Numbered from the stretch's first letter, positions 23,576 to 41,429 are shown. The stretch: DNA of 64,000 nucleotides from Lysobacterales bacterium (GCA_022844165.1 JALHMH010000002.1:96001-160000), one strand, 5' to 3'. A program made the numbers and translations. Notes: generated by a model not told the origin, from the sequence alone.

Positions 23576-25996
23576 TCAACCCTCAAAGCCGTCGGCGAAC
23601 AGCCGCGAGTCGTAAGCGACGCAGCTGCTCACTTCAGAGGTGCTACGCGGCACGACGAAGACGCCGGTTGATAGCTTGGTGGCGGTCGCAACGATGCGTC
23701 GTGGTGTAGCAAAGAAGTTCGTATCGCCCGGCACGATGATCGGCAAGTCGAAATCCATCGTACCGTTGGTGGTCGCCGTACCGTTGCTGATCGTAATCGT
23801 CGAGCTTCCCAACCATGTCACGGGTTGGCCACCGGGTATCGGCGGAATCGGCAGCACGGCACAGTTGATTGCATCGTAAAAGTCGATGCGATAACTGCCA
23901 TTGGCGGAAGCCAACGAACCCTGCGCGCGCCCCTGCGCCGAATTGCCCGCGGCCGCAGTGAGCCCAGGCCGGTTCTGGCCGAAGTTCGCGGCACCCGCTG
24001 GCGGCAAGGCATTGTTGCCATCGGCGCTGGTGCCATCGTCGCCCAGATCGATGGGCTGCTGGCCATTGTCGATGATGACGTTACGCAAGATGGCGTTCTC
24101 GACGCCGCCTGCCAGCACCACGCCGTCGTCGCCGTTGTACTGGATGCTGTTGCGCTCAACACGGTTGTTGCTCGCTTGATCGTCGAAGCGTACGCCATCT
24201 TCGTCGTTCCCCAGCGTGACGTCGCAGAGAATCACACACAGCGCCGGCAAGCCGATTCGGTTTTCGCGGATCTGGTTGGAGCGCGCATTCGCGCCAAGCA
24301 GCAGCACGCCGTGTCGGGTGTTGTTGCTGATGACGTTGGCGCGCACTTCGTTGTTGCGCCCACTGATCGCAACGCCATCGCGGTTACCGTCGGTCGCTAA
24401 GGAACCACTGGGTCCGACACCGATGTAGTTATTCACTACGCGCGTCGCCTCCCCACTGGCCGCGATGGTCACGCCGGTGCTTGTTGTGTCGGAAAAGACA
24501 TTGCGCTCTTGCGGCGTTTCATCGCCGATTTGAACGCCACTGGTGATTGGGCCGCTGGGCGAACCGACCAAAACGCCGATACTGCTGGGTGCCAACGTCA
24601 GCAGGGACGCGGCGGGCCCCATTTGTCCGCCGACTTGGGAGCCGATCAGACGGTGACCGTTGCCGCCCTCGAAGTACACGGCAGTAAAGCCAAAGCCGCC
24701 AAAGCCGATGCCATCGATGGTGACCGACGCATCCGGGTTGTTGGACGTCCGGATGCCGCTCGACACGACGCCGCCGTCGGTGATCGCAATGCATCGCACC
24801 GCGTTGCTGCCATTGGCGAGCGTGTTGCGCGAAGCGCCAGGTTGGGTATAGCCATCGATGACCACCGAGTTGCTGATCGCCGGCAGCGAAGTAATCAAGA
24901 CGATATTGCGGGGTCCGCACGTGCTGCCGATGTCGAACTCGATGCGATTGACGTTGGGCTGCGCGTTGGCGTCGATGATCGCCTGGCGCAACGAGCCTAT
25001 GCCGCTGTCGTTGGTGTTTTGCACCACAATCGTGGTGGCCGTCGTGCCGACGGCCGACTCGAACGCCCCGCGATCCGGCGCATCGCCAAACCAGCGGAGA
25101 TTTCCTGGGAAGTCGAGCTGGGTCAGCAGGAACGAACTGGGGAAGCCACTATTGATCGCCGGAGAGACGCCTTGCAGGCGAAAATCCAGTAATGCGGCGT
25201 TGACGAACAGCGGGTCGCTGGTGATTGTGTTCGTCGGCGCTGAAGCGAGATTTGCTAAACCGGTTGCGCTTCCGTAGAGGTTGTTGCGAACGCTGATTTC
25301 CAACGGATCGTCCCCGGCCACGAATCGCAGGTCTACGCCGCCATTGTCCCAAAAGACATTGTTGCGAAGCACGCCGCTGCCGGGAAAAATGGCAACGGGC
25401 TTGAAATTGCGCGCGAAGGTATTGCCCTCGATCAAATAACTCCCAGATTCGGAACTGAGATCAAGCCCTTGCGGGAACCCGGAGCCGATTCGCGTGAACA
25501 GAGAATTGCGCAGCGTGATGCTATCGGCCAGAAAGCTCACGGTGCCGATGTCGTCGAAGAACGCGCGATCGACACTGAGCGATTCGTCTGGCCAAAGCCT
25601 GGCTGAGGTGGCGGATCGAAGGCGCAGGCGATCCAAGCTCAGGGCCGGCGTAAAGAAAGCCAGCTCCGATCCCGTCGCCAGCAATTGCGTTGCGCCAGGA
25701 TCGGCGATGCGCGAGGCGCAGCCTGCGTTGTAACCGCCGCGAATGCGCACCGCATGATCGCTGACACGACAGCTCGTATTGGCGAGATCGAAACAACTTC
25801 CTGTGAGAGTGTAGGCGCCGGTCACTAGTCGAATCTCGACATCGTCGTTTGCGCTGGCCAGGTAGGCGGTGTCGAGCTGGCTCACCGAGTTGACACAGAA
25901 GGTCTCCAGCGCTTGGGCTCGCGCACTAAAAAGACCCGAAAACAACGCAACGAAGGCGGCAGTCTTGCTACCGTAAAGAAAAGCGAAGTTCCGCAT
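23576..25996 (-). CDS. Secreted parallel beta-helix / choice-of-anchor Q-like protein, C-terminus LFADGFEG
   Basis: Signal peptide; DFRLQGVSPAINSG..PDRGAFE; VQNTNDSGIGSLRQAI; NNYIG/NVISNN beta-helix repeats; TSEVS. Confidence 0.85.
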   Translation of the reverse strand: MRNFAFLYGSKTAAFVALFSGLFSARAQALETFCVNSVSQLDTAYLASANDDVEIRLVTGAYTLTGSCFDLANTSCRVSDHAVRIRGGYNAGCASRIADPGATQLLATGSELAFFTPALSLDRLRLRSATSARLWPDESLSVDRAFFDDIGTVSFLADSITLRNSLFTRIGSGFPQGLDLSSESGSYLIEGNTFARNFKPVAIFPGSGVLRNNVFWDNGGVDLRFVAGDDPLEISVRNNLYGSATGLANLASAPTNTITSDPLFVNAALLDFRLQGVSPAINSGFPSSFLLTQLDFPGNLRWFGDAPDRGAFESAVGTTATTIVVQNTNDSGIGSLRQAIIDANAQPNVNRIEFDIGSTCGPRNIVLITSLPAISNSVVIDGYTQPGASRNTLANGSNAVRCIAITDGGVVSSGIRTSNNPDASVTIDGIGFGGFGFTAVYFEGGNGHRLIGSQVGGQMGPAASLLTLAPSSIGVLVGSPSGPITSGVQIGDETPQERNVFSDTTSTGVTIAASGEATRVVNNYIGVGPSGSLATDGNRDGVAISGRNNEVRANVISNNTRHGVLLLGANARSNQIRENRIGLPALCVILCDVTLGNDEDGVRFDDQASNNRVERNSIQYNGDDGVVLAGGVENAILRNVIIDNGQQPIDLGDDGTSADGNNALPPAGAANFGQNRPGLTAAAGNSAQGRAQGSLASANGSYRIDFYDAINCAVLPIPPIPGGQPVTWLGSSTITISNGTATTNGTMDFDLPIIVPGDTNFFATPRRIVATATKLSTGVFVVPRSTSEVSSCVAYDSRLFADGFEG

Positions 25997-26184
25997 CGTG
26001 GGAGGTCCCTGGGCTTGGTCACCAGCAGAAATGCAATTTCCTGGCGAAAGCGAACGGGTCGATGTTCTCGCAACGATACGAGGATGAAGCAGTTTGCATC
26101 GACGGCTTCGGGCCGAACGCGTGGATCGGCGGGGGCGTCAAGCCATCACTGGGCAAAACCACCAAGCGCACCGACTGCTGCCAG

Positions 26185-26343
26185 TCACTTCTTGCGCGCA
26201 CCATAAGCCAGCGCGGCGAGGCCGGCGACGCCGACCAGAGGCGTTAGCCCACGGCCCAGTTGCGGGTGGCTGGCCCAGTACTGGGCGCCAGCGATCACGG
26301 CGAGGATGGCGACGGCGCTGATAACGATAACCTTGACGCTCAT
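26185..26343 (-). CDS. Small (52 aa) two-helix membrane protein coupled to deaD
   Basis: Translated by hand: MSVKVIVISAVAILAVIAGAQYWASHPQLGRGLTPLVGVAGLAALAYGARKK. ATG overlaps the deaD stop (ATGA); GC-rich third positions. Confidence 0.6.
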   Translation of the reverse strand: MSVKVIVISAVAILAVIAGAQYWASHPQLGRGLTPLVGVAGLAALAYGARKK

Positions 26344-28367
26344 GGACGTGGTCCCTTGCCTTTGCCGCGGTTGTGCTCGGTGCTGCCGCCTGTGGAGTCG
26401 GGTTTCATTTTCAGCGGCCGACCAGCGACCCAGGTCTTCTTCAGATGCTGAAGAATTTCCTTGGGCATACCTTCGGGTAGTTCGATGGTGCTGGTCTCCT
26501 CGCCGATTTCGATGCGCCCGATAAACTTGGAATCGAGGCCAGCTTCATTAGCAACAGCGCCGACCAAATTGCCAGGTTTCATGCCATGGCGATGACCCAC
26601 ATCGACGATGTAGCGCTCGAATACAACGTCCGCCGGCGGGGCTTTGTCGCGCGGCGCACGCGTTTTTGCCGGCGGCGCATCGCCGCGAAGGCGATCGCTG
26701 ATTGGGCGCTCCGCGCGAGGCTCACGCTCGTGGCGGCGCGTCGTTTCGCGCGGCGGCGTCGACACTGTATCAGCTTTGCGTTCGCCGCCTTCGGGTCTGG
26801 CGGCAGATCGCTCGAATGGACTGGATGCCGGCCGTTCGCTGCGCTCGCGCGTTCGTTCGGTCTTGCGTTCGGCGCTTTCGGGCCTTGCGGCAGATCGCTC
26901 AAAAGAACTGGATGTCGGCCGCTCGCTGCGCTCGCGCGTTGGCCGCGCTCGCTCGCCGGAGTCGGCGCGAGGGCCGCGTGTGCGCTCGGCGTCTTCGGAT
27001 CGCGCGCGCGGCGCTCTCTCTCGCGATTCCGACGACGGCGCCGGCGTGTCCTGACCCGATAACAGCAGCGGTTTTTCGCCCTGCAGCATGCGCGCAATCG
27101 CTGCGGCGACATCCAGTTCGGGCACTTCGCGCTGATGCGAAAAGTCGCTGATCAGTTGTCGGTAGAGATCGAGATCGCCGGCTTGCAGCCCCTTTTCGAT
27201 ACGCTCATAGAACTTGGCGACACGGCGATTGTTGACCGCCTGCACCGTCGGTACCAACATCGGTTCGATCGGTTGCCGGGTGGCGCGTTCGATGGTGCGC
27301 AGCAGATGCCGCTCGCGCGGCGTGACGAACAGGATCGCCTCACCACTGCGCCCGGCACGGCCGGTGCGCCCGATGCGGTGAATGTAGGCTTCGCTGTCGT
27401 ACGGGATGTCGTAATTGATCACGTGCGTGATGCGTTCGACATCGAGGCCGCGCGCGGCGACATCGGTGGCGACAAGAATATCCAGTTGTCCATCGCGCAG
27501 GCGCTGGATGGTCTTTTCGCGCTGCACCTGCTGCAGATCGCCGTTGATGGCCGCGGCGGCAAAACCGCGTGCATTCAGACGTTCGGACAACTCTTCGGTG
27601 CCGATTTTGGTGCGCGCAAAAATGATCATCGCCTCGAAAGCCTCGCCTTCGAGGATGCGCGTCAGCGCGTCGAGTTTGTTCAGCCCACTGACTTGCCAAT
27701 AGCGCTGGCGTATCTGGCTCGCGGTGGTGGTGGCCGAGCGAATCGTCACCTCCACCGGATCCTTCAGATGGTTCTGCGCGATGCGTTTGATCGGCGGCGG
27801 CATGGTTGCCGAAAACAGCGCCACCTGTCGTCCCGCGGGCGTGGCACCGAGAATCGTCTCGACATCGTCGATAAAACCCATGCGCAGCATTTCGTCCGCT
27901 TCGTCGAGCACCGCAACCTTGAGTTGCGAGAGATCCAGTGTTCCGCGGCTCAAATGGTCCTTGATTCGACCCGGCGTACCGACGACCACATGCGCGCCGC
28001 GGCGCAGGCCGTGCAACTGGCCGCCATACGCTTGCCCGCCATAAATCGGCAGGACGTGAAAATCGGGCAGATGTTGCGCGTAACGCTGAAACGCCTCCGC
28101 CACCTGGATCGCCAGCTCGCGCGTCGGCGCGAGCACCAGCGCCTGCGTCACGGCGCGCGACAGGTCGATCCGCGCCAGAATCGGCAGCGCAAAAGCGGCG
28201 GTCTTGCCGGTGCCGGTCTGCGCCTGTCCCAGCAGGTCCTTGCCAGCCAACAGCGGCGGAATTGTCTCCGCTTGAATCGGCGAGGGTGATTCGTAACCGA
28301 CGCTGGCGATCGCCGCCATCAGCCGCTCGGGCAAACCCAGGTCGGAGAATTGGATCGAGCTGCTCAT
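26340..28367 (-). CDS. deaD: DEAD-box RNA helicase DeaD/CsdA
   Basis: Q motif, AQTGTGKT, PTRELA, DEAD, SAT, ARGLD, HRIGRTGRAG; C-terminal DbpA RNA-binding domain (GNLVGAVANE). Confidence 0.96.
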   Translation of the reverse strand: MSSSIQFSDLGLPERLMAAIASVGYESPSPIQAETIPPLLAGKDLLGQAQTGTGKTAAFALPILARIDLSRAVTQALVLAPTRELAIQVAEAFQRYAQHLPDFHVLPIYGGQAYGGQLHGLRRGAHVVVGTPGRIKDHLSRGTLDLSQLKVAVLDEADEMLRMGFIDDVETILGATPAGRQVALFSATMPPPIKRIAQNHLKDPVEVTIRSATTTASQIRQRYWQVSGLNKLDALTRILEGEAFEAMIIFARTKIGTEELSERLNARGFAAAAINGDLQQVQREKTIQRLRDGQLDILVATDVAARGLDVERITHVINYDIPYDSEAYIHRIGRTGRAGRSGEAILFVTPRERHLLRTIERATRQPIEPMLVPTVQAVNNRRVAKFYERIEKGLQAGDLDLYRQLISDFSHQREVPELDVAAAIARMLQGEKPLLLSGQDTPAPSSESRERAPRARSEDAERTRGPRADSGERARPTRERSERPTSSSFERSAARPESAERKTERTRERSERPASSPFERSAARPEGGERKADTVSTPPRETTRRHEREPRAERPISDRLRGDAPPAKTRAPRDKAPPADVVFERYIVDVGHRHGMKPGNLVGAVANEAGLDSKFIGRIEIGEETSTIELPEGMPKEILQHLKKTWVAGRPLKMKPDSTGGSTEHNRGKGKGPRP
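26776..26940. repeat. 87-bp (29-aa) tandem duplication in the DeaD linker
   Basis: TRERSERPTSSSFERSAARPESAERK / TRERSERPASSPFERSAARPEGGERK. Confidence 0.85.
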
Positions 28368-28497
28368 GGTGCTGCCTGGGTTTTGAACGGGCGCGGATTC
28401 TACGCCTCAACGGATGAACCGGTGGCGTGACCAGTGGCCCACGCAATCGGAGTGGGCAAACGCCTATCGTGCGGCCACCGCGAACCGGAGTCGTCTC

Positions 28498-29613
28498 ATG
28501 CACACCACCCGCCGCAACCTCCTCAAACTGAGTGCTCTCGGCGCTGCGGCGACGGCCGCCCCGTCGCTATTGTATGCGTCCGTCGCGCGCGCGGAGAAGC
28601 CGCTCAATATCCTGATTCTCGGCGGCACCGGATTTACCGGTCCCCATCAGGTTCGATACGCGTTAGCGCGCGGGCACAAGCTGACGCTGTTCAACCGTGG
28701 GCGAAAAGAGGTCGAATGGCCGGGCGAGGTTGAGGAACTGACCGGCGATCGCAATACCGGTGCGCTGGATGCGCTGAAAGATCGTCAGTGGGACGTGTGC
28801 ATCGACAATCCGACCAGCGTGCCGTTCTGGGTCCGTGATGTCGGCCAGATCCTGGCCGGCAACGTCGATCAATACGTCTTTATCTCCACGATTTCGGTGT
28901 TTAGCGATAACGCGACGCCAAACATGGCCGAAGATGGCCCTCTGGCCGTATACGAAGGCAAGGACGCGCTCAAGGAAACGCGCGATTCGTTGATGGCGAA
29001 CATGGCACTGTACGGGCCGCTGAAGGCCGCCTGCGAGGCGGAAGCGGCGAAACAATTTGGCGACAAGACGACGATCATCCGCCCCGGTTTGATCGTGGGT
29101 CCGGGCGACGAGACCGACCGCTTCAGCTACTGGCCGGTACGTATTGCGCAGGGCGGCGATGTGTTGGCGCCACCGGGCGACGACCCCATGCAGTTCATCG
29201 ACGCGCGCGATCTGGCCGAATGGACGATCCGGATGGTCGAGGCGAGGGCCTACGGCGTCTACAACGCCACCGGCCCGGATTTCGAGATGTCGACGGCCGC
29301 AATGCTCTACGGTTGTCGCGCAGTCACGACCAGCGGCGCACGCCTGCGTTTTGCCAGCGCGGAGTTCCTGGCAGAAAACAACGTGGCGCCTTGGGCGGAG
29401 ATGCCGGTGTGGGTGCCGGGTAGCGGCGAAACGGCAGGTTTCGCGCGCGTCAATTGCCAAAAAGCGATCAAGGCCGGCCTGACGTTCCGTTCGCTGGCGA
29501 CCACCGCTGGCGATACCCTGGCCTGGTGGAACAGCCAGCCGGCGGAACGTCGCGTGCTGCGCGCTGGGTTAAAACCAGATCGCGAGCAGGCTCTGTTGAA
29601 GTTGCTGAAGTAG
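28498..29613 (+). CDS. Tat-signal NAD-dependent epimerase/dehydratase (extended SDR)
   Basis: MHTTRRNLLK twin-arginine signal; GGTGFTG; YGPLK; RPGLIVGP. Confidence 0.88.
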   Translation: MHTTRRNLLKLSALGAAATAAPSLLYASVARAEKPLNILILGGTGFTGPHQVRYALARGHKLTLFNRGRKEVEWPGEVEELTGDRNTGALDALKDRQWDVCIDNPTSVPFWVRDVGQILAGNVDQYVFISTISVFSDNATPNMAEDGPLAVYEGKDALKETRDSLMANMALYGPLKAACEAEAAKQFGDKTTIIRPGLIVGPGDETDRFSYWPVRIAQGGDVLAPPGDDPMQFIDARDLAEWTIRMVEARAYGVYNATGPDFEMSTAAMLYGCRAVTTSGARLRFASAEFLAENNVAPWAEMPVWVPGSGETAGFARVNCQKAIKAGLTFRSLATTAGDTLAWWNSQPAERRVLRAGLKPDREQALLKLLK

Positions 29614-29654
29614 GACGGTTGTCGCGAGTTACACATTTCGCACATCAGGTCGCA

Positions 29655-29686
29655 CAGCCTGGAATCGAGCACCGATTCCGAGGCTG
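29655..29686. terminator. Hairpin between convergent genes
   Basis: CAGCCTGGAATCG-AGCAC-CGATTCC(G)AGGCTG inverted repeat; no strong U-tract. Confidence 0.45.
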
Positions 29687-29720
29687 GCGACGCGCTCCTG
29701 TCTGATCGTTTGGCGCTCGA

Positions 29721-30893
29721 TCAAGGCCGATAGTCGAGCGCCAACCAGAATTTGTCGACATCCGTGGCAAAGCGATCGGCGCGATATTGCGCCAGCTTTC
29801 CTGTCAGCGTCCATTGCGTGCCGATCGGGCGCACGTACTGGATGCCGAGTTCATCGCCGTAATCGATGTCGCCGCGATCGGAACGGAATTCGTGCCACCG
29901 TGCGCTAAGCGTGCCGCCGCCGACTTTCCCGGAGACTTCGATCATGGTGTCGCGCAGCCCGTCGCGGGGCGTCGTCAGGAATCGGTCGGCCCAACCGTTG
30001 AAGGCATGCAAAGTCGCCAGCGGCGTCTGAAAGCCATAGCGCCCATCGCCGCCGAGGCGCTCGAAGAGCACACGCACGGCAACCGCGCCCTCGTTGAAGT
30101 TGAGCGTGTTGTCGATCGCGAAGTAACCCGCGTCGATGTCGGTGCTGCCGCCCTGGTAGTCCGTTTGTTGCGCGCCTTCGACGACGTACAGCCAGCGCCA
30201 CTTGTCGTGGCTCAGCGCCGTTCCGCTCAGGCGCAAACCCAGGTTCCGATGACTGCTGAGCGGCACGTCTTCATTTTCGATCGCATAAAGGTACGCGACC
30301 GCCTGATGCCCGCCATAAACATAGGCGAGGTTCAGCAGATACGTATCCAGTGCCTGCTGCCGCAATAGCGGGTTGGGATTGTAGTTGCCGAAAAAGCGAT
30401 GCACTTCGTCCAGGTAAGCGGCACGTAACGTCAGCGCGCCAAAACTGTGCTGCACCGTGAGCGCGTCGTAGGTCTGTTCGTTCTGGCGGAACGCAACGCT
30501 GCCGATGAAGCGCTGGTTGTCGTAATTCAGGCGCTGGCGGCCGACGATCCACTGCGATGGCGTGGCGAATCCATAGGCGACATAGGCCTGATTGATTTCC
30601 TCACCTGCCGGATCGGCGATGACTGGGCGGGTCCGTTCGCTGTTGATCGTGCTGTTGTAGCTGTTTCGATCCGCCGCCGCAATCAAGTCCGCTTCGGCAA
30701 ATGCCGAGAACCCGCGCCAGGATTCGCTACGCAAGCCCAGTCTTGCGCGCAGTGTCAACGCGTCGCTATCGCGCGGAAAAGCGTCGTCCGAAACGCTCTC
30801 GAAACGCGCGCGATAGTCCTGCACGAACTGCCACGCACCAGCCTCCTGCGCGACCAGTACACAGGCCACCCCAAGTGAATAGAGATATTTCAT
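29721..30893 (-). CDS. Alginate export (AlgE-like) outer-membrane porin family protein
   Basis: Signal peptide; GRQRLNYDNQRFIGSVAFRQNEQTYD; FQTPLATLHAFNGWADRF; beta-barrel pattern. Confidence 0.85.
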   Translation of the reverse strand: MKYLYSLGVACVLVAQEAGAWQFVQDYRARFESVSDDAFPRDSDALTLRARLGLRSESWRGFSAFAEADLIAAADRNSYNSTINSERTRPVIADPAGEEINQAYVAYGFATPSQWIVGRQRLNYDNQRFIGSVAFRQNEQTYDALTVQHSFGALTLRAAYLDEVHRFFGNYNPNPLLRQQALDTYLLNLAYVYGGHQAVAYLYAIENEDVPLSSHRNLGLRLSGTALSHDKWRWLYVVEGAQQTDYQGGSTDIDAGYFAIDNTLNFNEGAVAVRVLFERLGGDGRYGFQTPLATLHAFNGWADRFLTTPRDGLRDTMIEVSGKVGGGTLSARWHEFRSDRGDIDYGDELGIQYVRPIGTQWTLTGKLAQYRADRFATDVDKFWLALDYRP

Positions 30894-30903
30894 CGCGTTT
30901 ACC

Positions 30904-31356
30904 TTAGTCGAGATTTTCGATCACTACGATGACGTTGGCACGGAAGTTCTTCCAAACCACCGGCAAGGCGTAGGACTTGATGCCCTTTGGCAAGTGCAGG
31001 GCGTCCTGGCCGTAGATCAGTGTGGGCACGGAAATCATGAAATCGTTGCCGAAGTGGTTGCGCGCATTCCCGGAAATCGTATTGGCGACATCACCCACTT
31101 GATCGAGCATGTTTTCGCGCGTCATGTTCTGCTCGCCGACCTCTTTCATCAGCAGCATCAGGAGGGCGCGATCTGCGGTGAAATACACGGTGCCGCGGTG
31201 TCGCCCCGTGATACCGATCGCACCGGTGAACTCGCCGGCCACGGAGCGCGCATCGTCGATCAGATACGGCGAACCGACTTCCGCTTTGCTGCCCGTGGTT
31301 TCGAAGAAATAGCTCGTCGCACCGTCCAAGAAAACTTTGATCTGGCTTGCGTCCAT
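30904..31356 (-). CDS. cheX: CheX-family phosphatase
   Basis: FTGAIGITG, DQVGDVANTISGNAR (ExxN-like, here DxxN), ISVP. Confidence 0.85.
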   Translation of the reverse strand: MDASQIKVFLDGATSYFFETTGSKAEVGSPYLIDDARSVAGEFTGAIGITGRHRGTVYFTADRALLMLLMKEVGEQNMTRENMLDQVGDVANTISGNARNHFGNDFMISVPTLIYGQDALHLPKGIKSYALPVVWKNFRANVIVVIENLD

Positions 31357-31365
31357 GTCGATCCT

Positions 31366-33839: not shown

Positions 33840-34231
33840 GCACATTTCCCCTGATCCACAAGCCATATTGGGCCTGACCGTGACTGCGCTGCGCCAGTAG
33901 CGGTTTGTGTTTTCTTGTGTCGAGTGTTGAAGACCTTGTGAACTCCTCCCAGGCAGCTCGATCGCTCCCTGGTTCACCCCGTCTGGTCTGAAGCGGGCCT
34001 TCGAATGTCCAGGTCGAGTCGTCGAGAATTCGACGAAGTGTTCGGGGCCCCGGTTCTGTCGGTGTCCCCAAAGTCATTGCGAAAGTCATTGGAACCGGTC
34101 CGGCGTCTCCCGCCTCGAAGCTGCGCGCTACGCCATCGCGTTGTGATGACTTCTCATCGCGCATTGCCTTGGGCCAATATCCATCGGAAGTTTCTTCCAA
34201 TGATCTTTGGGCAACCACTCCAGGAATGACC

Positions 34232-34501
34232 ATGGAACGCGATCTGGCTGCTGATGAACTCGCCAACTATGTGTGTCCACATTTGTGGCCCTGGGTCAGC
34301 GCCCTGAAAGTGGCTGGTTTCATGCCGTCGTTGGCGCGTTTCGATCTGAAGTCGCACATCCTGACTTTGGAGTATCCGCAGACCGCGAAATCCATCTGCG
34401 CATCGCTGGCCGCGTCTGCGCCCGAGTTGGGGCTGGAGGGCGATGCCAACGGCGCCGTGTGCCGTCAATGCTGGCAATCGCTGAGTGTGCTGGGGCACTA
34501 A
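34232..34501 (+). CDS. Small hypothetical protein with CxH and CxxC (possible Zn binding)
   Basis: AGGA RBS; 89 aa; VCPHL near the N-terminus and CRQC near the C-terminus. Confidence 0.5.
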   Translation: MERDLAADELANYVCPHLWPWVSALKVAGFMPSLARFDLKSHILTLEYPQTAKSICASLAASAPELGLEGDANGAVCRQCWQSLSVLGH

Positions 34502-34734
34502 GACGCATCGGGAACGCGGCACCGTGGGGTGCGATCAAAGAGCAGAGCCGGCCCGCAACGTTGCCGGCTTGCATTTCGATGCGTAGATGCCCCTTTGCAA
34601 GGGTCCAAACATCCACCTCGACGCCGCCAACGCCATCGCCGCGTCGATCTTCTCCTCACGTGAAACATCGGAACCTGTGATTTACGGTCGATTGGCACGG
34701 ATAGACTCGCCGCTCCGCCCGCGGAGAGCCACCG

Positions 34735-37551
34735 ATGCCGTATCGAGTTCGTCTAGCCATCGTACTGTTGTCGCTGGCGGGCGGCGCTGTTGCGTTGCAG
34801 CCTGAGCTGCAAACCAGCCAGTACCAGGTGCAGTGTTATGGCGTTGCCGATGGACTGCCGCAGGGTTCGGTGCAGGCGATTCTGCAATTGCCGGACGGCG
34901 CGCTCTTGCTCGGAACCAACCGTGGAGTGGTGCGCTTCGATGGCGCCAGGGCGGCACCATTGCTCATCGATGGCAGCCCGTCGCTGACCAATGTCCAGGT
35001 CCATCGGATGGGGCGCTTCGAGGACGAGGTTTGGATTGCGGCCTTCGATGGACTGTACCGATGGCGTGAGAACAGCCTGGACCACTACACGCAAAAGGAT
35101 GGTCTGCCGCAAGACCGGGTGACCGCCATTCTGCCGACATCCGACGGCGCTTACGTCGGCACCCATGGTGGCAGCGTGTTTCTTCCGCGCAAATCGGACC
35201 GATTCGGGCCGGCCCAGCCTCTGGGCGATATGCGCGCTTCGGAATTCGACTTCGATCCCGATGGCCTGTTCTGGGCGGCGGCGTTGGATGGCGTCTGGCG
35301 ACGTGGGCTCGATGGCCAATGGACGGCGCTGACCCAGATCGACAACGGCGGCATTTATTGGTCGACCTTGCGCGATGCCAGCGGCACCCGCTGGCTCGGC
35401 GCGCGAACCCGATTGGCGCAGCTCGACGGAGAAACGCTCAAAACCGTACCGGCTGAACAAGGACTGCCCGCGCAACCGGTGCGTGCCATCCTGCAAGATC
35501 GCGATCGGCAGTTGTGGTTCGCCACGGCAGGCGCCGGATTGTACCGGCGCCAGGGCGAACGCTTCGAACGCGTTCCTGGCCTGCGCTCGGACGTGGTGTT
35601 CGCGCTCCAGGAAGACAACGAAGGCAATCTGTGGGCTGGCACCAGCAGCGGTGTCTGTCGTGTCCGCGATGGCGCCATGATGAACTTCGGCCTCGCCGAA
35701 GGGATCGGCACCGATTTTGTGTTGTCGATCCACGCGGCGAGCAATGGCAGCACGTACGTCGGCAGCAACGGCCGCGGTCTTTATGCGATTACGGACGGCG
35801 CGGTGGAGGCGCTGGGCAACCCGGGCGGCGATCCCTTCGTCAACCTCATCACCGGCATCGGCGATCGCCTGCTGGTGACCAGCAATGCCGGCAGCTTCTT
35901 CTACGAAAAACCGTCGTTCACGCCAGTGCATCCGGCGCTCGGAAACCGGCAGATTGCCTGGGCTGCGTTGGACGACGACGGCGTGCTCTGGTTTCGCAGT
36001 GGCGTGAAGCCCCTGGAGCGGCTCGTTGGTGACACGCTCAGTGAACATGCGCTGGGCGACGATGGCGGCCCCTCCCGATGGGGATTTCGCGGACGCGACG
36101 GCGCCGTTTGGTTGACGACCACCAAAGCGCTGTATCGCGCTCGCGGCACGGAGGTGGCGCAGCAAATGGCGCTGCCGCCGAGTCCGGTCGCCGCCTGCCA
36201 GATCCAGGACGCGCGGGGCATCGTTTGGTGCACCAGCAGTGATGGCGTGTTACGCGTGGATCCTAAAGCGCAACGCGTGCAGGTGATTCGCGATCCTTCG
36301 ATGGGACAGTTGGCACTGCTGGCACTGCTCGAGGACGATACAGGCGGTTTGTGGATCGCCAGCACGGCGGGACTTTTTTATGCCAGTTTCAGCGATCTGG
36401 ACGCCGCAGCCAACGGCGCGCCTGCCAATTTGCGCCGCTTCGATGAACGCCACGGCATGCGCTCCAGCGAGTTTGCGCGAGCGTATGCGCCTGGGCTCGC
36501 GAGCGCCGGCGCTGACGGCCAACATTGGTGGGCCACCTTGGGCGGCGTGCTGAAGACCGATCCGCAGCAGCTGATCGAGGTCCGCACGCCACCGTCGCTG
36601 GCCATCGTGCGCCTGCGCGCCGACGGCGGCGTGGTGCCGGAACGTGCGTGGCATCAGCTGCCGCCTGACGTGGTCAATATCGACATCGATTTCAGCGCCC
36701 GCAGCCTGACCGACGCCGCGAGCCTGCAATTGCGCCATCGGCTGCTGCCGCTGTCGGAAGAATGGAGCGAGACCCAGGGCCGCCAGTTTTCGGCCTTGGG
36801 CCTGCCGAGTGGACGTTATCGTTTCGAGCTGCAGGCCACCCTGGATCGCCGCCAGTGGCAAACGGTGGCGGGCGAGTTCACCATCCAACCGCATTGGTAC
36901 CAGCGTTGGTGGGCGCGCGCCGCATTCATTGCCTTCGGCATGCTGCTGGTCATCGCCATTCCGGTGCTGCGGATCGCACATTTGCGGCGCCGAGCGGCCG
37001 AACTGAGCCACCTCGTGGAGGAGCGCACCGCGGCGCTGCATGTCGCCAATCGACGCCTCGATCAAATCGCGCGCACCGATGCGCTGACCGGCATCGCCAA
37101 TCGGCGCCGTTTCGACGAAGCGATGCTGGAGCTGTCGGAACAAGCGCCGCAGCCGGTCGCCCTGCTGCTCGCGGATGTCGATCATTTCAAGCGTTATAAC
37201 GACAGCCGCGGCCACCCCGCTGGCGACGAATGCCTGCGCCTCGTCGCCGGCGCCATGCGTTCGGTGCTGCCCCAGACCGGTGCCCTACTCGCGCGTTACG
37301 GCGGCGAAGAATTTGCGGTTCTGTTGGTGGGCGCATCGGACCCACAACAGCTCGCCGACCAACTGCGCAATGCCGTCCGCGCCCTCGCACTCCCCCACGA
37401 AGCCAACCCGCCCGATGACATCGTCACCATCAGCATTGGCCTGGCCGCCAGCAGCGGCCTCGGCGAAACCAGCGAACACCTGCTCCACCGCGCCGACCAC
37501 GCCCTCTACAGCGCCAAGAGCACCGGGCGCGATCGGGTGTGTTTGGGATAA
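34735..37551 (+). CDS. Diguanylate cyclase with periplasmic beta-propeller/Y_Y_Y sensor
   Basis: Reg_prop repeats (DGLPQGSV, EDNEGNLWAGT), LPSGRYRF, TM segment, DALTGIANRR, DVDHFKRYND, RYGGEEF. Confidence 0.93.
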   Translation: MPYRVRLAIVLLSLAGGAVALQPELQTSQYQVQCYGVADGLPQGSVQAILQLPDGALLLGTNRGVVRFDGARAAPLLIDGSPSLTNVQVHRMGRFEDEVWIAAFDGLYRWRENSLDHYTQKDGLPQDRVTAILPTSDGAYVGTHGGSVFLPRKSDRFGPAQPLGDMRASEFDFDPDGLFWAAALDGVWRRGLDGQWTALTQIDNGGIYWSTLRDASGTRWLGARTRLAQLDGETLKTVPAEQGLPAQPVRAILQDRDRQLWFATAGAGLYRRQGERFERVPGLRSDVVFALQEDNEGNLWAGTSSGVCRVRDGAMMNFGLAEGIGTDFVLSIHAASNGSTYVGSNGRGLYAITDGAVEALGNPGGDPFVNLITGIGDRLLVTSNAGSFFYEKPSFTPVHPALGNRQIAWAALDDDGVLWFRSGVKPLERLVGDTLSEHALGDDGGPSRWGFRGRDGAVWLTTTKALYRARGTEVAQQMALPPSPVAACQIQDARGIVWCTSSDGVLRVDPKAQRVQVIRDPSMGQLALLALLEDDTGGLWIASTAGLFYASFSDLDAAANGAPANLRRFDERHGMRSSEFARAYAPGLASAGADGQHWWATLGGVLKTDPQQLIEVRTPPSLAIVRLRADGGVVPERAWHQLPPDVVNIDIDFSARSLTDAASLQLRHRLLPLSEEWSETQGRQFSALGLPSGRYRFELQATLDRRQWQTVAGEFTIQPHWYQRWWARAAFIAFGMLLVIAIPVLRIAHLRRRAAELSHLVEERTAALHVANRRLDQIARTDALTGIANRRRFDEAMLELSEQAPQPVALLLADVDHFKRYNDSRGHPAGDECLRLVAGAMRSVLPQTGALLARYGGEEFAVLLVGASDPQQLADQLRNAVRALALPHEANPPDDIVTISIGLAASSGLGETSEHLLHRADHALYSAKSTGRDRVCLG

Positions 37552-37689
37552 GGTGTGGTGGATCTGGCGGTGCGCTTGGCCAGGCGCCGTCGCGCACGAC
37601 CTCTGCCAGAGCTGTCTCAAGCCCTCAACGACCTGCGCAACACGGGCAAACCGATTCTCGACCCGCCGCTGCCTTCCCGGCAGAGTGCG

Positions 37690-37936
37690 GGAACAGAGTA
37701 GCCGCGATCGGCCTGACAGCGTGGAGCGCATCAACAGCTTGCGACCGGTCGGTTCCATCCTGGGCTACTCCGGCGACACCGAGGAAGCGCCGCAGCTGCT
37801 GAAAGAGGCGCTGTGGCGGGCAACCGCGCTACGTGGGGCAAATAGCGTCGAAGCCGCGTCGGCGCATCTGGATCTGGCGCGTTATCTGGGCGGTGCCGGT
37901 GGACACGCCGAGCCCAAATGCATTGACAGTCCCTAA
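37690..37936 (+). pseudogene. Possible remnant of a TPR region (STPK-TPR type)
   Basis: LGYSGDTEEAPQLLKEALWRATALRGANSVEAASAHLDLARYL resembles kinase-TPR repeats; no start codon or intact ORF. Confidence 0.4.
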
Positions 37937-37980
37937 ATCTGTGAAATACGCTGTGAAGCAGCTCGCATTCGGATTGCACC

Positions 37981-39459
37981 ATGCACGCCCCGTACGCCGC
38001 GATATCGCTCAGCCATCTGCATGCCGGGCGCGGTCCTTGTGTGGCTGGTTCTATCCGTCTGTGGGTGGGCGCGTGGCTCGCATTGAGTCTGACCTGCGCT
38101 CCTGCGATGGCGGCGGATGTGGTGGTGGTTTCACTTGAGGACACGGGCGCCGGGACGTTGCGCAACGCCATCGCGGAGGCAGTCGCGGGCGATCGCATCG
38201 TATTCGCGCCAGGGCTCGCGGGCACGATCAGCCTGAACTCGACCCTGACCATCGGCCGCGATCTGATCATCGAGGGCAATGGCAACATCGAGCTGGACGG
38301 CAGGGACACCTCAAGGGTGATCACGATCACCGGCGGGCAGGTGGATTTGCGGCGTCTGGTGGTGCGCAACGGTTTCGCAACCGATGGTGGCGGGATTGCC
38401 AGTGCAGGCACCCTGCGGATGAACAACTGCGTGGTGCGCAACAACAACGCGAGCGCGCGCGGTGGCGGCTTGTTCATCAGTGCGGGCAGCTACAGTCTGG
38501 TCGACACCACCATTGCCGACAATTTCGCGACCAATGAAGGTGGCGGCATCGAAGACCTGGGCACTGCGCCGTCAACCATCACGCGGGGCCGCATCGTCAA
38601 CAACATCAGCTCCGGCGCAGGCGCCGGCATCCGACACGTGTCGAGCCAGGAACTCACGATCGATCACAGCACGATCTCCGGCAACACGGCAGCGACCACG
38701 AGCGTCGTCATTGGCGGCGGCATTGCCAGCCAAGGCGCGACGCTCAACATCAACTACAGCACGGTCTCCGGCAATAAATCGCATTTCGGTGGCGGCATCT
38801 ATGTGGCAAATCTTGGCGCGTCAACGAAACTCAACCTGATCGGCAGCACAATCACTGGCAACACGGCCGTATCGGATGGTGGCGGTCTGTTCGTGTTCGG
38901 TGCAGGGGCGACGCTGATCAATTCGACCATCGCCAACAACCTTGCGGGTGCCGGGACGGGCGGCGGTTTGTCAATTCAGAACTCCGGCCCGGGCACGGCA
39001 ACGGTCATCATCAACAACAATACGATTGCGTTTAATCGCTCGAACGCCAATGGTGGTGGTATCACCGCAATCTCCGGCTCGCTGAGTCTCAAGAACACGC
39101 TGATTGCCGGCAATATCAGTGGCACCAACGCAGACATCCAGGGCGCATTCGTCTCGGAGGGATTCAATCTGGTGCAGACGCGTGGCACCAGCTCGGGCTA
39201 TGTTGCGTCGGATCTGGCCAATGGCACGCTGCCGCAGCTGGCCACACTGGGATTCAACGGCGGTCCAACACTCACCGTATTGCCGAACACCGGCAGTCCG
39301 GCGATCAACGCGATACCCTCGTCCAACTGCGCGGGCATCGCGCTCGATCAGCGCGGCTACAATCGTCCTGCGAATCAATGCGACATCGGCGCGCTGGAAG
39401 TCGGCGCTGCACCACCGGCGCCGCCTGTTAACCAAGTGTTTCGCGATGGTTTCGAGTAG
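37981..39459 (+). CDS. Secreted choice-of-anchor Q / Pmp-like beta-helix protein, C-terminus VFRDGFE
   Basis: Signal peptide; DTGAGTLRNAI; GGG(I/L)..STISGN repeats; NGGPTLT..GSPAINA..DQRG..CDIGALE. Confidence 0.88.
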   Translation: MHAPYAAISLSHLHAGRGPCVAGSIRLWVGAWLALSLTCAPAMAADVVVVSLEDTGAGTLRNAIAEAVAGDRIVFAPGLAGTISLNSTLTIGRDLIIEGNGNIELDGRDTSRVITITGGQVDLRRLVVRNGFATDGGGIASAGTLRMNNCVVRNNNASARGGGLFISAGSYSLVDTTIADNFATNEGGGIEDLGTAPSTITRGRIVNNISSGAGAGIRHVSSQELTIDHSTISGNTAATTSVVIGGGIASQGATLNINYSTVSGNKSHFGGGIYVANLGASTKLNLIGSTITGNTAVSDGGGLFVFGAGATLINSTIANNLAGAGTGGGLSIQNSGPGTATVIINNNTIAFNRSNANGGGITAISGSLSLKNTLIAGNISGTNADIQGAFVSEGFNLVQTRGTSSGYVASDLANGTLPQLATLGFNGGPTLTVLPNTGSPAINAIPSSNCAGIALDQRGYNRPANQCDIGALEVGAAPPAPPVNQVFRDGFE

Positions 39460-39491
39460 GCTGCGTCGGTGAAAACCGACGAAGCGTAAAG

Positions 39492-39570
39492 ATGATTGCT
39501 GGCCATGCCCGATCACGTGGCCTGATTCTCGTGAGCAACAACCTTGCAAATTCGAACGCGTCCGGGGTCG
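39492..39570 (+). pseudogene. VapC toxin C-terminal fragment
   Basis: MIAGHARSRGLILVSNNL, then after a frameshift KFERV; matches the VapC IAGHARSRGLILVTNNxxEFERVPGL signature. Confidence 0.65.
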
Positions 39571-39698
39571 ACGCTATTGACGCCGCCTTCGCTTGTGGCG
39601 CTGTTCGTCACAAATGCGGTGCTCACGATGGTCTGGTTCGACACCGCGCCGCGCGCCAGCTGGCGAGCAGCTGGCGCAGCGCGCAAGGTCCGATGCGA

Positions 39699-41429
39699 CT
39701 ACTCGAAGCCATTGGCGAAAAGTTCGGCATTCGCTGCCGCCAACGCCCACGACAGGCCGTCGCTGGTGCGGTGTTCCCAACCCCACATCCGCCAGGGGAA
39801 TACGCGAAATGCGGCACGCCCAGACTGCGGAGACGTAGGCTCAATCCAATAATTGACGCCAAGGTCGTAGGTGCGATAGAGCGTGGCAATGGTGCTCTGC
39901 AACGCAGCATCGCGTTGTCCGAGCATGGCGCCGAAGTAATCGGCCCAGGCCAGCGCTGCAGCCACGTCGAGCGAATGTTCTTGGTCATGGATCGCCGCCG
40001 TGCCTGCAAAATCGGTTCCGTCATGTTCGATGACGTAACGCGGGGCGAGCAAATTACCACCGTAGAAACTGCTCTGCGTGCGTAGCGCGGCACTTAGGAA
40101 CGTGCCGCTGCGGCGAATCATTTGCGCCGTTGCAGTGTCCTCGGCAGTGGCATAGGCGCGGCGCAAAGCATCGGTTAGAAGCGCGGTCATCCAGGTCGAT
40201 GCGCCATACGCGGCCGGGTCCCAATCGCCGTGTTGCGCGCCAGTGTGGTACCAGCCGCCATCGATGCGCGGACTGGGGATGCCTGGCAATCCGTTCTGAT
40301 GCGCAGAAAGACTCTGGATCATGGCGTCAACGTTGCTGCGCCGCGCGACACTGCCCGTCACTTCATAGTCGATGGCATGTGCATTGAGCTTGAAGGCCAC
40401 CGCGCGCTCGGTCCAGAAACTCAAAGCTGCCGTCCATGCGTGCGCCGTGCTGTTGTGCGCGTTGGCCGTGGCAGTGATTGGCGCCAGAAAGGTGTCGTCG
40501 CCGGTGAGCCAAAACGCGTATGCCAACGATTCGTTGAACGAGTACTTGGTATCACCCGCATTGAGCGAGAACCTGCCGCTGGCGTTCAGTTCCTTGCGGT
40601 AGAAATCGGCGTGGCGCAACGCTTCGCGCAGCGGCTTGAGATGACCGCTCTTGAGGTACAACGCAAACATCGTCGCCGCACGGTCATAGAGCCAGGGTTC
40701 GAACGCAGTCTTGTATGGGCATTGATTTGCCACCGTCACATTCGGATCGTCCTCGTTGATCACGGTGTAGAAATTGTTCTTCATGGCACGCTCGGCCTCC
40801 TGCGTGCCGGGCCACGTGGCAATGTTGTCCATCGCCTGCGGATCGTCGCGTGCGGCGCCGTTGCTGGCGTCGAACGGCAAGGTTTGCGTCGTCCGCAGCA
40901 CGCCCTGCGCCAGCCACGCGGCGGGCATCGTGGCGATCACGCGCGGCTCCTGGACGCTATCAGCCGCAAGAAAGCTTCCGCTGCTCACAGCACTCCAGGT
41001 GCTCGCGCGACCGACGCGCGCCGGGCGAGTGAGCGTGCGCGCCACGCCGCCGTACTCGACAACAATGCGTTTGGCTTGATTGACATTCGCGAAGCTGACT
41101 TCGATCTGCACCAGGACGACGCGAACAGATGCGCCATCGATCGCTGCATTGTTGCGGTGACGCCACGGCGTCAGTACCGCCACATAGGCCGGAATCTCGA
41201 CGCCGCCGTCCAGCACGCGCACACTGCTTAATGCACTCGGCGCCAGTGAGCCACGCGCGAGCGGCACGCCGAAGCTGGCAACAACCGGCTGATTCGCTTG
41301 CACAGAAATCGGGTGCAGATCGACTGCGACGCTCGCCACCGGTTGCGCCGGCGCGAAGAACGGTTCGGCCGCAGAGCAGGAACTGACGCACAGCCAGAAC
41401 CACAAACACCGAAACGCGTTCATTGCCAT
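39699..41429 (-). CDS. Secreted hypothetical protein (possible carbohydrate-active alpha/alpha barrel), C-terminus LFANGFE
   Basis: Signal peptide; N-terminal VASFGVPLARG..PW..GSVR beta domain; aromatic-rich helical region (WLYDR, WTER, STWMTALL). Confidence 0.7.
   Translation of the reverse strand: MAMNAFRCLWFWLCVSSCSAAEPFFAPAQPVASVAVDLHPISVQANQPVVASFGVPLARGSLAPSALSSVRVLDGGVEIPAYVAVLTPWRHRNNAAIDGASVRVVLVQIEVSFANVNQAKRIVVEYGGVARTLTRPARVGRASTWSAVSSGSFLAADSVQEPRVIATMPAAWLAQGVLRTTQTLPFDASNGAARDDPQAMDNIATWPGTQEAERAMKNNFYTVINEDDPNVTVANQCPYKTAFEPWLYDRAATMFALYLKSGHLKPLREALRHADFYRKELNASGRFSLNAGDTKYSFNESLAYAFWLTGDDTFLAPITATANAHNSTAHAWTAALSFWTERAVAFKLNAHAIDYEVTGSVARRSNVDAMIQSLSAHQNGLPGIPSPRIDGGWYHTGAQHGDWDPAAYGASTWMTALLTDALRRAYATAEDTATAQMIRRSGTFLSAALRTQSSFYGGNLLAPRYVIEHDGTDFAGTAAIHDQEHSLDVAAALAWADYFGAMLGQRDAALQSTIATLYRTYDLGVNYWIEPTSPQSGRAAFRVFPWRMWGWEHRTSDGLSWALAAANAELFANGFE

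Follow-up and report, generated by a model that had tools for sequence, protein, structure and literature searches.

The window, a stretch of 64,000 nucleotides from a Lysobacterales bacterium (GCA_022844165.1, JALHMH010000002.1:96001-160000), contains three open reading frames, P1, P2 and P3, with the common C-terminal ending [LV]-F-x-[DN]-G-F-E (Table 1), below called the tag. Translation confirmed the positions and tails assigned to them in a first-pass annotation. The N-termini of all three look signal-peptide-like when read by eye, in agreement with that annotation; a signal-peptide heuristic called P1 and P3 and missed P2, for which the start was probably called too early. Two proteins have the expected linker before the tag, Pro/Ala in P2 (AAPPAPPVNQ) and Ala-rich in P3 (ALAAANAE); P1 has none. 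The genes of an ECF-type sigma factor and a Ser/Thr kinase adjoin P1. A terminator-like hairpin follows P2; four similar copies are present elsewhere in the genome, and three of these four sit 2-4 nt past the stop codon of a called tagged gene.

Table 1. Genes, tags and neighbouring features in the window
Feature	Coordinates	Strand	Basis
P1, 806-aa exported beta-helix protein, end ...DSRLFADGFEG	23576..25996	-	ORF translation, Pfam/NCBIfam
Tag of P1, D-S-R-L-F-A-D-G-F-E and one extra Gly	23579..23611	-	Fits genome logo
P2, 492-aa exported right-handed beta-helix, end ...VNQVFRDGFE	37981..39459	+	ORF translation, NCBIfam, AlphaFold2
Tag of P2, V-N-Q-V-F-R-D-G-F-E, up to stop	39427..39456	+	ORF translation, homologues, AlphaFold2
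P3, 576-aa exported protein, end ...NAELFANGFE	39699..41429	-	ORF translation, AlphaFold2, Foldseek
Tag of P3, N-A-E-L-F-A-N-G-F-E, up to stop	39702..39731	-	ORF translation, homologues
ECF-type sigma factor, neighbour of P1	22986..23546	+	Pfam Sigma70_ECF, r2 and r4
911-aa Ser/Thr kinase, neighbour of P1	20102..22837	-	Pkinase 77-335, TPR_12/TPR_10 563-748
GC-rich hairpin with GAAA loop, terminator-like, directly 3' of P2 stop	39460..39491	+	

P1 and P2 are of the beta-helix / choice-of-anchor Q type, whereas P3 has an unrelated fold, as had been suspected. Profile searches place P1 in the NosD/Beta_helix family, and the choice-of-anchor Q profile (NF041518, cut-off 25 bits) matches P1 with 28.3 bits at residues 269-314 and P2 with 58.3 bits at residues 418-474. 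P3 has no match to NF041518 and no Pfam or NCBIfam family at all. Its AlphaFold2 model (pLDDT 93, pTM 0.92) consists of an N-terminal beta-sandwich and an (alpha/alpha)6 barrel, and Foldseek retrieved GH9 exo-glucosaminidases, GH88 and polysaccharide lyases with E-values down to 2.5e-5; judging from the model, P3 is probably a glycan-active enzyme. In the two models made, the tail is predicted to lie outside the fold and to be unstructured on its own: residues 483-492 of P2 (overall pLDDT 89.7) are below 50, and the tail block of P3 has pLDDT 46-75 with the last residues below 50. Such low-confidence predictions speak neither for nor against the donation of a strand to a partner, and that the tail looks like the F.DDFE first strand of LamG/ConA folds is a resemblance only.

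The occurrence of the same peptide on three tails is real and far beyond chance. The pattern F.[DNS]GFE is found 74 times in 44,320 six-frame stop-to-stop segments of at least 60 aa from this genome. Fifty-seven copies lie no more than three residues from the stop, 49 of them directly before it; one lies 4-20 residues away and 16 lie farther. All three stop codons are used after the tags (TGA 28, TAG 15, TAA 14), and thus read-through is ruled out as the origin of the tails. In a crude call of 3823 genes, GFE is the most frequent C-terminal tripeptide (60 genes, followed by AAA with 21). As it occupies 372 of 1,382,830 tripeptide positions overall, about one C-terminal GFE would be expected. 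About 77 proteins of this genome, ~2% of the total, are tagged, and the logo of their tags is D-x-[LVIM]-F-[AR]-[ND]-G-F-E. The predicted association with export was observed as well: signal peptides were called in 43 of 52 genes with the strict tag and in 1462 of all 3823 genes (odds ratio 7.9, p 5.6e-11), and under a stricter heuristic the counts are 30 of 52 and 803 of 3823. We regard the tag as confined to signal-peptide proteins. The tag behaves as a modular add-on to unrelated folds, with 67 Pfam families among the 52 tagged proteins. These include proteases M12B, S8, M14 and M28, endonuclease I and an esterase, as well as BNR/sortilin, FG-GAP and cadherin-like domains.

In the P3 family the motif is present in 107 of 115 homologues with a recognisable core. 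The linker varies in length from 14 to 33 residues and has an entropy of ~3 bits per position; the values for F, G, F and E of the motif are 0.26, 0.91, 0.36 and 0.58 bits. A tag-like tail is kept in 40 of 46 close homologues of P2 with a recognisable core, and the family-level orthologue of P1 in genome G181 (842 aa, 41% identity) ends in ELFANGFEG and adjoins the kinase orthologue. Conservation of this kind in the alignments indicates that the tag is under strong selection. At the place of the tag, distant choice-of-anchor Q homologues have IPTL-like tails with a TM segment and basic residues, T9SS domains (PF18962 in two distant homologues of P2), or a stop right after the domain.

The tag is found at other positions too. 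Of the 107 tails in the P3 family, 71 end exactly at E and 36 carry 1-231 residues beyond it, in some cases 5-13 extra residues or a whole extra domain. Copies between domains sit exactly at domain ends and are followed by Pro/Thr/Gly linkers and a further domain. In a 317-aa protein of this genome and its three closest motif-bearing relatives (P0241, P0242, P0244) the tag occupies the mature N-terminus, where 116 further homologues have an unrelated linker. The N-terminal and inter-domain copies, together with the residues beyond E, argue against a reader that needs a free carboxylate, such as a canonical PDZ groove. Genus g14, which had looked tag-free, has the variant tail FxDRF[EQ] (16 copies in G080, 10 in G054, 0 in controls), and in genome G182 the final E is replaced by D (FxDGFD). 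The last residue of all tail variants is E, D or Q.

Within the order, a strict DNA pattern of the tag is present in 133 of 199 genomes; a single genome has up to 76 matches, and the reversed control gave 0-1. The same pattern gave 0-2 matches in each of 250 other genomes of the class. The tag is conserved order-wide and, among the genomes searched, restricted to one bacterial order. No description of it was found in the literature.

Phylogenetic profiling, suggested at the outset as a way to the co-distributed machinery, recovered a secretion gene and no receptor. Where PF11356 (T2SSC) is present, 112 of 133 genomes have at least two tags; where it is absent, 9 of 66 do. In family f12 at least two tags are found in exactly the seven GspC-positive genomes. 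In family f2 the sole genome with a full-length strong GspC match (G134, E 1.3e-27) has 21 tags, and two others with weak partial matches have 0. The GspC PDZ domain of genus g14 has a 5-residue deletion in 4/4 sequences, compared with 0/19 others. Tag counts track the canonical GspC-type (HR+PDZ) type II secretion gene, within families too, although related genomes share features by descent and the profile overstates their independence. GspC is not sufficient for the tag, as a control search with PF11356 found matches in E. coli and Caulobacter, whereas tags were not found outside this order in the genomes of the class searched. Nor is it strictly necessary in these data: three genomes of family f8 with 11, 6 and 4 tags (G129, G007, G081) have no PF11356 or PDZ match. 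As to a possible other type II secretion system in tag-free genomes, PF05134 matched in one of five genomes tested. No co-distributed machinery beyond the secretion gene was found in the profiling. Signal peptides, exoenzyme families and co-occurrence with GspC are indirect evidence that tagged proteins may be type II secretion substrates.

We propose, as the likeliest reading and with a probability of about one half, that the three tails belong to an order-wide terminal peptide tag that acts in post-Sec sorting or retention. A sorting role is deduced here from the position and distribution of the tag, whose consensus is D-x-[LVIM]-F-x-[DN]-G-F-E-COOH, with FxDRF[EQ] and FxDGFD as lineage variants. 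It is joined by a short variable linker to the end of enzymes and adhesins that are exported by Sec and have many unrelated folds. An envelope receptor would read the free tail once the protein has been exported by Sec and folded in the periplasm, and would either direct the cargo into type II secretion or keep it, once secreted, on the cell surface. In this role the tail would stand in for TM-containing signals (IPTL-CTERM, PEP-CTERM, GlyGly-CTERM) without a membrane anchor.

It is also conceivable, if unlikely, that no receptor is involved and the tail is a physico-chemical end-cap. An amphipathic turn (two Phe, a Leu, flanking Asp/Glu) might stick to the outer leaflet or to LPS-bound cations, or might shield the protein against tail-specific proteases. 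N-G and D-G favour tight turns, and such a role would fit the occurrence of the motif at either terminus and between domains, the tolerance of a few added residues, the acidic last residue kept across variants, and a secretion gene as the only co-distributed machinery found. However, a generic sticky or protective end would not require F, G, F and E to be nearly invariant (0.26-0.91 bits). In addition, G has become R across g14 and E has become D in G182, and such lineage-wide changes at one position resemble the co-evolution of a tag with its reader.

Tagged genes adjoin modules of ECF sigma factors and Ser/Thr kinases with TPR domains more often than expected. The genes most often found next to them encode kinase-TM-TPR proteins of one 800-990-aa family (16 members) and ECF sigma factors (7). 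The window kinase has an N-terminal kinase domain, one predicted TM segment and a long C-terminal TPR region that is periplasmic by topology. It belongs to a set of 46 paralogue hits, and for 17 of these a tagged gene lies no more than three genes away. Among 35 kinases longer than 700 aa, 11 have a tagged gene within two genes; permutation over all genes gave a mean of 2.7 and permutation over signal-peptide genes of at least 300 aa a mean of 3.4, with a maximum of 10 in 2000 permutations each. The sigma factor adjacent to P1 is a member of a family that recurs beside tagged genes and is possibly the regulator of P1; the triad of kinase, sigma factor and P1 is kept in G181. Across the order, kinase candidate counts correlate with tag counts (Spearman 0.66; 0.65-0.95 within families f1, f3, f4 and f12), but they are loose first-look figures in which genome size and descent are confounders.

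This neighbourhood would be accounted for if the tail were a signalling ligand. The many transmembrane Ser/Thr kinases associated with ECF sigma factors (PknS/EcfK-like) would recognise it through their periplasmic TPR domains, report exoprotein load or arrival and tune the exoprotein genes. Analogues are DegS, which senses the C-termini of outer-membrane proteins, and the TPR clamps (Hop/EEVD, PEX5/SKL). PknS of Xanthomonas citri is reported to require its periplasmic TPR region for signalling, and no ligand of this region is known (PMC13147305). We consider this role quite improbable. Only about 12-17 of the 77 tagged genes adjoin a kinase; the tails are nearly identical and therefore could give no kinase a specificity of its own; the sigma-kinase orthologues of family f4 adjoin an untagged 740-aa secreted protein; and family f10 has many tags and few kinase candidates, as does G129 (11 tags, 4 candidates). 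The adjacency may mean only that the modules regulate exoprotein genes. Likewise unlikely is an extension of the sorting hypothesis in which the tail is a linear, transplantable type II secretion export code and the sigma/kinase-TPR modules listen to the same code. To our knowledge, no linear type II secretion signal is known; if true, this would be the first one for a system thought to recognise folded features only.

Very unlikely is a processing site, in which GFE ends would be the already cut form and internal copies would be cut to free downstream domains: it would suit the copies at domain ends and the P3 homologues with residues or a domain past the motif, but 49 of 57 copies lie directly at the stop, where nothing is left to cut, a cleavage site at an uncuttable end would need no conservation, and the candidate sortases, C25/PorU-like peptidases, were not found in tag-rich G134, in 4/4 genomes of family f5 and in 13/24 of family f10. 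These peptidases mark the same seven f12 genomes as GspC, and are not required for the tag.

The choice of folded periplasmic proteins for exit or surface retention in Gram-negative bacteria is a long-standing open question. A tail of nine residues, marking about 2% of the proteome across an order of soil and water bacteria and changing in step with lineage, is short enough to be synthesised, deleted or grafted, and thus makes the question directly testable. Its scale is a whole order rather than the three proteins first noticed. In uncultured Xanthomonadales the tail could be used to predict which proteins form the exoproteome, and it could act as a secretion or display tag if it proves transplantable.

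The tag matches none of the known sorting signals compared here, in line with the first-pass annotation: the tails of P1-P3 have no TM helix, no basic cluster and no Pfam or NCBIfam hit. PEP-CTERM/exosortase signals (PEP motif, TM helix, basic cluster) are out, as the tails have no hydrophobic stretch and no Arg or Lys beyond the motif; a search of the genome with TIGR02595 gave no hits, but as its control gave none either, that result by itself carries no information. IPTL-CTERM (TIGR04174; IPTL-like motif, TM helix, Arg cluster) is out by the lack of NCBIfam hits on P1-P3. The three genome hits of TIGR04174 over the cut-off are other proteins ending in ...AIPVNNPLALALLALLLGGLGLTLVRRNG, none of them a GFE protein. 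GlyGly-CTERM/rhombosortase (Gly-Gly, TM helix, basic residues) is out by the tail sequences and the same lack of hits. The T9SS C-terminal domain is a folded beta-sandwich of about 80-100 aa, whereas the tag has 9 residues and is disordered in the models; P1-P3 have no Pfam or NCBIfam T9SS hit. The outer-membrane-protein beta-signal is a terminal aromatic residue, usually Phe, at the end of a beta-barrel, and is excluded by the final Glu (Asp/Gln in variants) and the soluble folds of the cargo.

In distribution the tag resembles the IPTL-, PEP- and GlyGly-CTERM signals: in each case signal-peptide proteins of many unrelated families end in a single copy, and the signals are lineage-restricted and many-to-one, and take the same position on choice-of-anchor proteins. 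PMC12369372 describes GlyGly-CTERM cargo also as type II secretion cargo kept at the surface. The tag lacks the signature-TM-basic architecture, being nine residues long, acidic and the end of the protein; no sorting enzyme is known for it, it can occur N-terminally, and true IPTL-CTERM proteins are encoded alongside it in this genome. Another comparison is with substrate selection by the PDZ domain of GspC (OutC of Dickeya, EpsC of Vibrio cholerae). According to PMC12369372, only some substrates depend on the C-terminal PDZ of this secretion 'clamp' protein, and the PDZ-dependent information of VesB resides in an Ig fold, not in the C-terminal tail. Here tags track the HR+PDZ GspC and a tag variant coincides with a PDZ variant (g14); the information in V. 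cholerae is a folded domain, whereas here it would be a linear tail, whose binding to PDZ is only a candidate interaction.

An ECF sigma factor and a kinase-TM-TPR protein of PknS architecture adjoin P1 and about a dozen other tagged genes, and are similar to the ECF43 / Hanks kinase module EcfK-PknS of X. citri. The window sigma factor, a possible ECF43 member, reads ...SQDTADLLQM... in region 2.2 and keeps both Asp at the DxxD place (D-T-A-D), whereas ECF43 proteins have an uncharged replacement with a conserved Thr and the consensus QTTA, according to PMC13147305. These modules are neighbours of the tag and not the tag itself, and this genome has about 35-46 such kinases.

Similar in form are the C-terminal codes with dedicated readers: PTS1 (SKL) with PEX5, EEVD with Hop, and YxF of outer-membrane proteins with DegS. 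Like the tag, these are very short conserved peptides at a free C-terminus, placed after a flexible linker on many unrelated proteins. They differ in sequence, compartment and organisms, and the GFE tag is found also at N-termini and between domains.

The short C-terminal peptide of exported proteins with the consensus D-x-[LVIM]-F-x-[DN]-G-F-E, here called the tag, is a real and abundant element, under selection and specific to one order. The genome holding the window (4.68 Mb, 59 contigs) was scanned for it, and for signal peptides in its carriers, as proposed in the first-pass annotation. The pattern F.[DNS]GFE occurs 74 times in six-frame stop-to-stop segments of at least 60 amino acids; 57 occurrences lie at most three residues from the stop, 49 of them directly at it. 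Genes were called crudely from the GC3-GC2 contrast, which gave 3823 that together take up 89% of the DNA. Among these GFE is the commonest C-terminal tripeptide, ending 60 genes; since it makes up 372 of 1,382,830 tripeptide positions, about one such end would be expected. AAA is second with 21. The logo of the 52 strict cases reads D(29/52)-x-[L24 V16 I7 M3]-F-[A34 R8]-[N35 D11 S6]-G-F-E, and the tagged genes number 77 when leucine for the first phenylalanine and similar changes are admitted. Signal peptides were called in 43 of the 52 strict-tag genes and 1462 of all 3823 by one heuristic, which is too loose (odds ratio 7.9), and in 30 of 52 and 803 of 3823 by another, which is too strict; the direction of enrichment is identical. 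The strict-tag genes missed by the call mostly have a wrong start or a signal peptide readable by eye. The motif is concentrated at the stops of exported proteins, as had been suggested. Read-through or recoding of the stop codon is ruled out, as all three stop codons follow the tag (TGA 28, TAG 15, TAA 14) and there is no downstream conservation.

The three tagged ORFs and their ends were seen in the window translation as first described. Both P1 and P2 belong to the beta-helix proteins and carry a choice-of-anchor Q domain. Pfam and NCBIfam searches with P3 gave no family. Its AlphaFold2 model (65 homologues, pLDDT 93, pTM 0.92) consists of a beta-sandwich at the N-terminus and an (alpha/alpha)6 barrel, with GH9 exo-glucosaminidases, GH88 hydrolases and a polysaccharide lyase as the best PDB matches. 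Thus the claim that the third fold is unrelated to the other two was correct.

Coordinates of tagged proteins and other features, in the window or on other contigs (C) of the same genome
Feature	Location	Strand	Remarks
Tagged protein P1	window 23576-25996	(-)	806 aa; end SRLFADGFEG
Tagged protein P2	window 37981-39459	(+)	492 aa; end NQVFRDGFE
Tagged protein P3	window 39699-41429	(-)	576 aa; end ELFANGFE
Sigma/kinase module next to P1	window 20102-23546
Kinase of this module	window 20102-22837	(-)
Sigma factor of this module	window 22986-23546
Further sigma/kinase module	C55:16063-19446
Further sigma/kinase module	C32:8418-11794
Further sigma/kinase module	C8:27155-30406
317-aa protein	C17:80260-81213		motif at mature N-terminus
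C25 peptidase gene	C10:108826-109872		ORF 1672 aa
C25 peptidase gene	C11:11038-12063		ORF 1351 aa
GC-rich hairpin, GAAA loop	window 39460-39491		conserved; GCGCCGG-TGAAA-CCGGCG-GAGTGCCAGG-like
Similar hairpin	C8:117325-117352
Similar hairpin	C28:53552-53579
Similar hairpin	C32:3467-3494
Similar hairpin	C53:25149-25176
SRRRI-tailed repeat protein	C16:3999-7334		1111 aa
SRRRI-tailed repeat protein	C4:192189-195089		966 aa
Exported protein, no tag	window 9078-11546	(-)	822 aa

The description of the tail as a modular add-on also held. The 52 strict-tag proteins contain 67 different Pfam families, among them reprolysin, subtilase, M14 and M28 peptidases, endonuclease I, an esterase, and domains of the BNR/sortilin, FG-GAP, cadherin-like and Ig-like kinds. 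The end of the core is recognisable in 115 of the 120 listed homologues of P3, and the motif is present in 107 of these; a few orthologues lack the tail wholly. Core and motif are separated by a linker of 14-33 residues, whose entropy is about 3 bits per position, and the motif positions F, G, F and E have 0.26, 0.91, 0.36 and 0.58 bits. Of the 107 motifs, 71 stop right at E, 27 are followed by 1-3 residues and nine by 5-231. Among the family members P0075, P0076, P0078, P0061, P0053, P0055 and P0015, some tails run 11-13 residues past GFE (e.g. ...FEDGFETRVALRQGLRPTP). Among the close homologues of P2 the core can be recognised in 46, and 40 of these keep the tail, behind a linker of 8-15 residues. 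The last residues of the P2 and P3 models have pLDDT below 50, the remainder being confident. As modelled, the tail is a tethered unstructured peptide outside the strands of its own domain, and the possibility that it forms the final strand of that domain is ruled out by both models.

Searched as DNA, F-x-[DN]-G-F-E followed by a stop (a slightly noisy pattern, as it also lets TGG through) matched 133 of the 199 genomes sampled from the order, up to 76 times per genome; the reversed control gave 0-1 matches per genome. All or nearly all genomes are positive in families f1, f3, f4, f5, f6, f9 and f10. The strict pattern is rare in f2 (one positive genome of 25), and few genomes have it in f7, f8 and f12. 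None of the 250 other genomes sampled from the class, 248 of them from other orders, has more than two matches. Part of the tag-poor groups use variants. Genus g14 of f7 has F-x-D-R-F-[EQ] at the stop (16, 10 and 3 matches in genomes G080, G054 and G096; controls 0), and all 12 genomes of this genus match a relaxed pattern, four of them 8-16 times; F-x-D-R-F-[EQ]-stop has no matches in the f2 genome G013. The f12 genome G182 has 37 matches, mostly GFD, when D or E is allowed at the end. Named homologues come from Dokdonella, Ahniella and Tahibacter, and those of P3 from Dokdonella also end in GFD. Literature searches for the motif, supplementary files lying outside their reach, returned only unrelated matches and no description of the tag.

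The best-supported reading, to which we give about even odds, is that of a putative tag for sorting or retention after Sec export, linked to the GspC-type secretion route. The single GspC gene of the genome (PF11356, E 1.8e-19; TIGR01713, 97.8 bits) encodes a C-terminal PDZ domain, and the adjoining 715-aa ORF is taken to be GspD by its position and size only. Phylogenetic profiling, proposed earlier as a way to the co-distributed machinery, covered four candidate families one by one. Of the 133 genomes of the order with PF11356 over the cut-off, 112 carry at least two strict tags, versus nine of the 66 without a match, and four of these nine are incomplete or fragmented assemblies. In f12, at least two tags are found in exactly the seven GspC-positive genomes and in none of the 17 negative ones. 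In f2, only G134 gives a strong GspC match over the full length (E 1.3e-27); it has 21 tags, and two other f2 genomes with weak partial matches have none. All 24 genomes of f7 have GspC, yet few strict tags; this apparent exception is softened because g14 carries the variant tail. The GspC PDZ domain of g14 has a five-residue deletion just ahead of the strand following the carboxylate-binding loop (four of four g14 sequences versus 0 of 19 others). Three f8 genomes, which carry 4-11 tags but lack a GspC match, are the exceptions left. A single-sequence PDZ search, superseded by the family search, had missed diverged f10 PDZ domains visible in the ORFs. PF05134 (T2SSL) matched one of five tag-free genomes and is uninformative as a marker of any type II system. 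A complex prediction that paired residues 196-305 of GspC, its PDZ region, with residues 541-574 of P3, its tail, was run without controls; it scored 0.01 and gives no verdict either way.

One rival reading would make the tail a ligand for kinase TPR sensors. Among the 383 genes at most three genes away from the 77 tagged ones, the most recurrent families are Ser/Thr kinases with a transmembrane segment and TPRs (800-990 aa, 16 genes) and ECF sigma factors (seven). A phmmer search gave 46 kinase hits in the genome, of which 35 exceed 700 aa. A tagged gene lies within three genes of 17 of the 46 and within two genes of 11 of the 35; permutations (2000 each) gave means of 2.7-3.4 and a maximum of 10. 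Kinase numbers across the order are loose first-look candidate counts, not copy numbers. The triad of kinase, sigma factor and P1 is conserved in G181, a genome of the same family, and in f4 the orthologues of the sigma factor and kinase adjoin an untagged protein. The same architecture is found in PknS/EcfK of Xanthomonas citri, where signalling needs the periplasmic TPR region of PknS, for which no ligand is known (PMC13147305). Thus the kinase TPR region is a second candidate reader of the tail, or the modules may simply regulate exoprotein genes.

Such PknS/EcfK-like modules are massively expanded, with about 35 loci besides that in the window, and many of the 46 kinase paralogues adjoin large secreted proteins or TonB-dependent receptors. 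Residues 523-700 of the window kinase give a sub-threshold match to NF040586, a TPR protein of the "FxSxx-COOH system" (E 1.1e-13, 50.7 bits, cut-off 300), which is probably generic TPR similarity.

Ten genes have the motif away from the C-terminus, either at the end of a domain followed by a Pro/Thr/Gly linker or right behind the signal peptide. Among the listed homologues of the 317-aa protein, the N-terminal motif is shared by P0241 and P0242 (found by regular expression) and P0244 (by eye) only; the other 116 come from several phyla and have at this place a low-complexity linker of unrelated sequence. These placements make the peptide a portable module that is mostly, though not always, at the C-terminus. 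A further rival reading would make the tail a receptor-free end-cap, and the remaining one a processing mark.

Several other elements were observed. Three of the four hairpin copies outside the window lie 2-4 nt 3' of the stop codon that ends a called gene with the tag, and the hairpin is probably a common terminator that spread when 3' ends were duplicated; an Rfam search of window positions 19000-43000 gave no family. Two large secreted repeat proteins share the end ...[IV]SRRRI[IV]P(PAG/GP) without a transmembrane helix, which may be another short C-terminal motif, and a sigma/kinase module adjoins one of them. The 822-aa exported protein has an unusual architecture, with a PDZ-like N-terminal stretch (weak PDZ_6 match), an alpha/beta-hydrolase region (by eye) and FG-GAP/VCBS-like DGDGD repeats.

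As for known sorting systems, the genome has two genes for C25 peptidases of the gingipain/PorU type. Such peptidases, here in a gammaproteobacterium, occur in 93 of the 199 genomes sampled from the order, frequently with more than one copy. However, the profiling did not single them out as required machinery: PF01364 was not found in the tag-rich G134 and in four of four f5, two of two f6, seven of 25 f4 and 13 of 24 f10 genomes, and a required C25 sortase is thus ruled out. None of the three proteins of the genome matching IPTL-CTERM over the cut-off is a GFE protein. Distant homologues of P2 from other phyla end directly after the choice-of-anchor Q domain, or have IPTL-like tails with a transmembrane helix and basic residues, T9SS domains or other ends.
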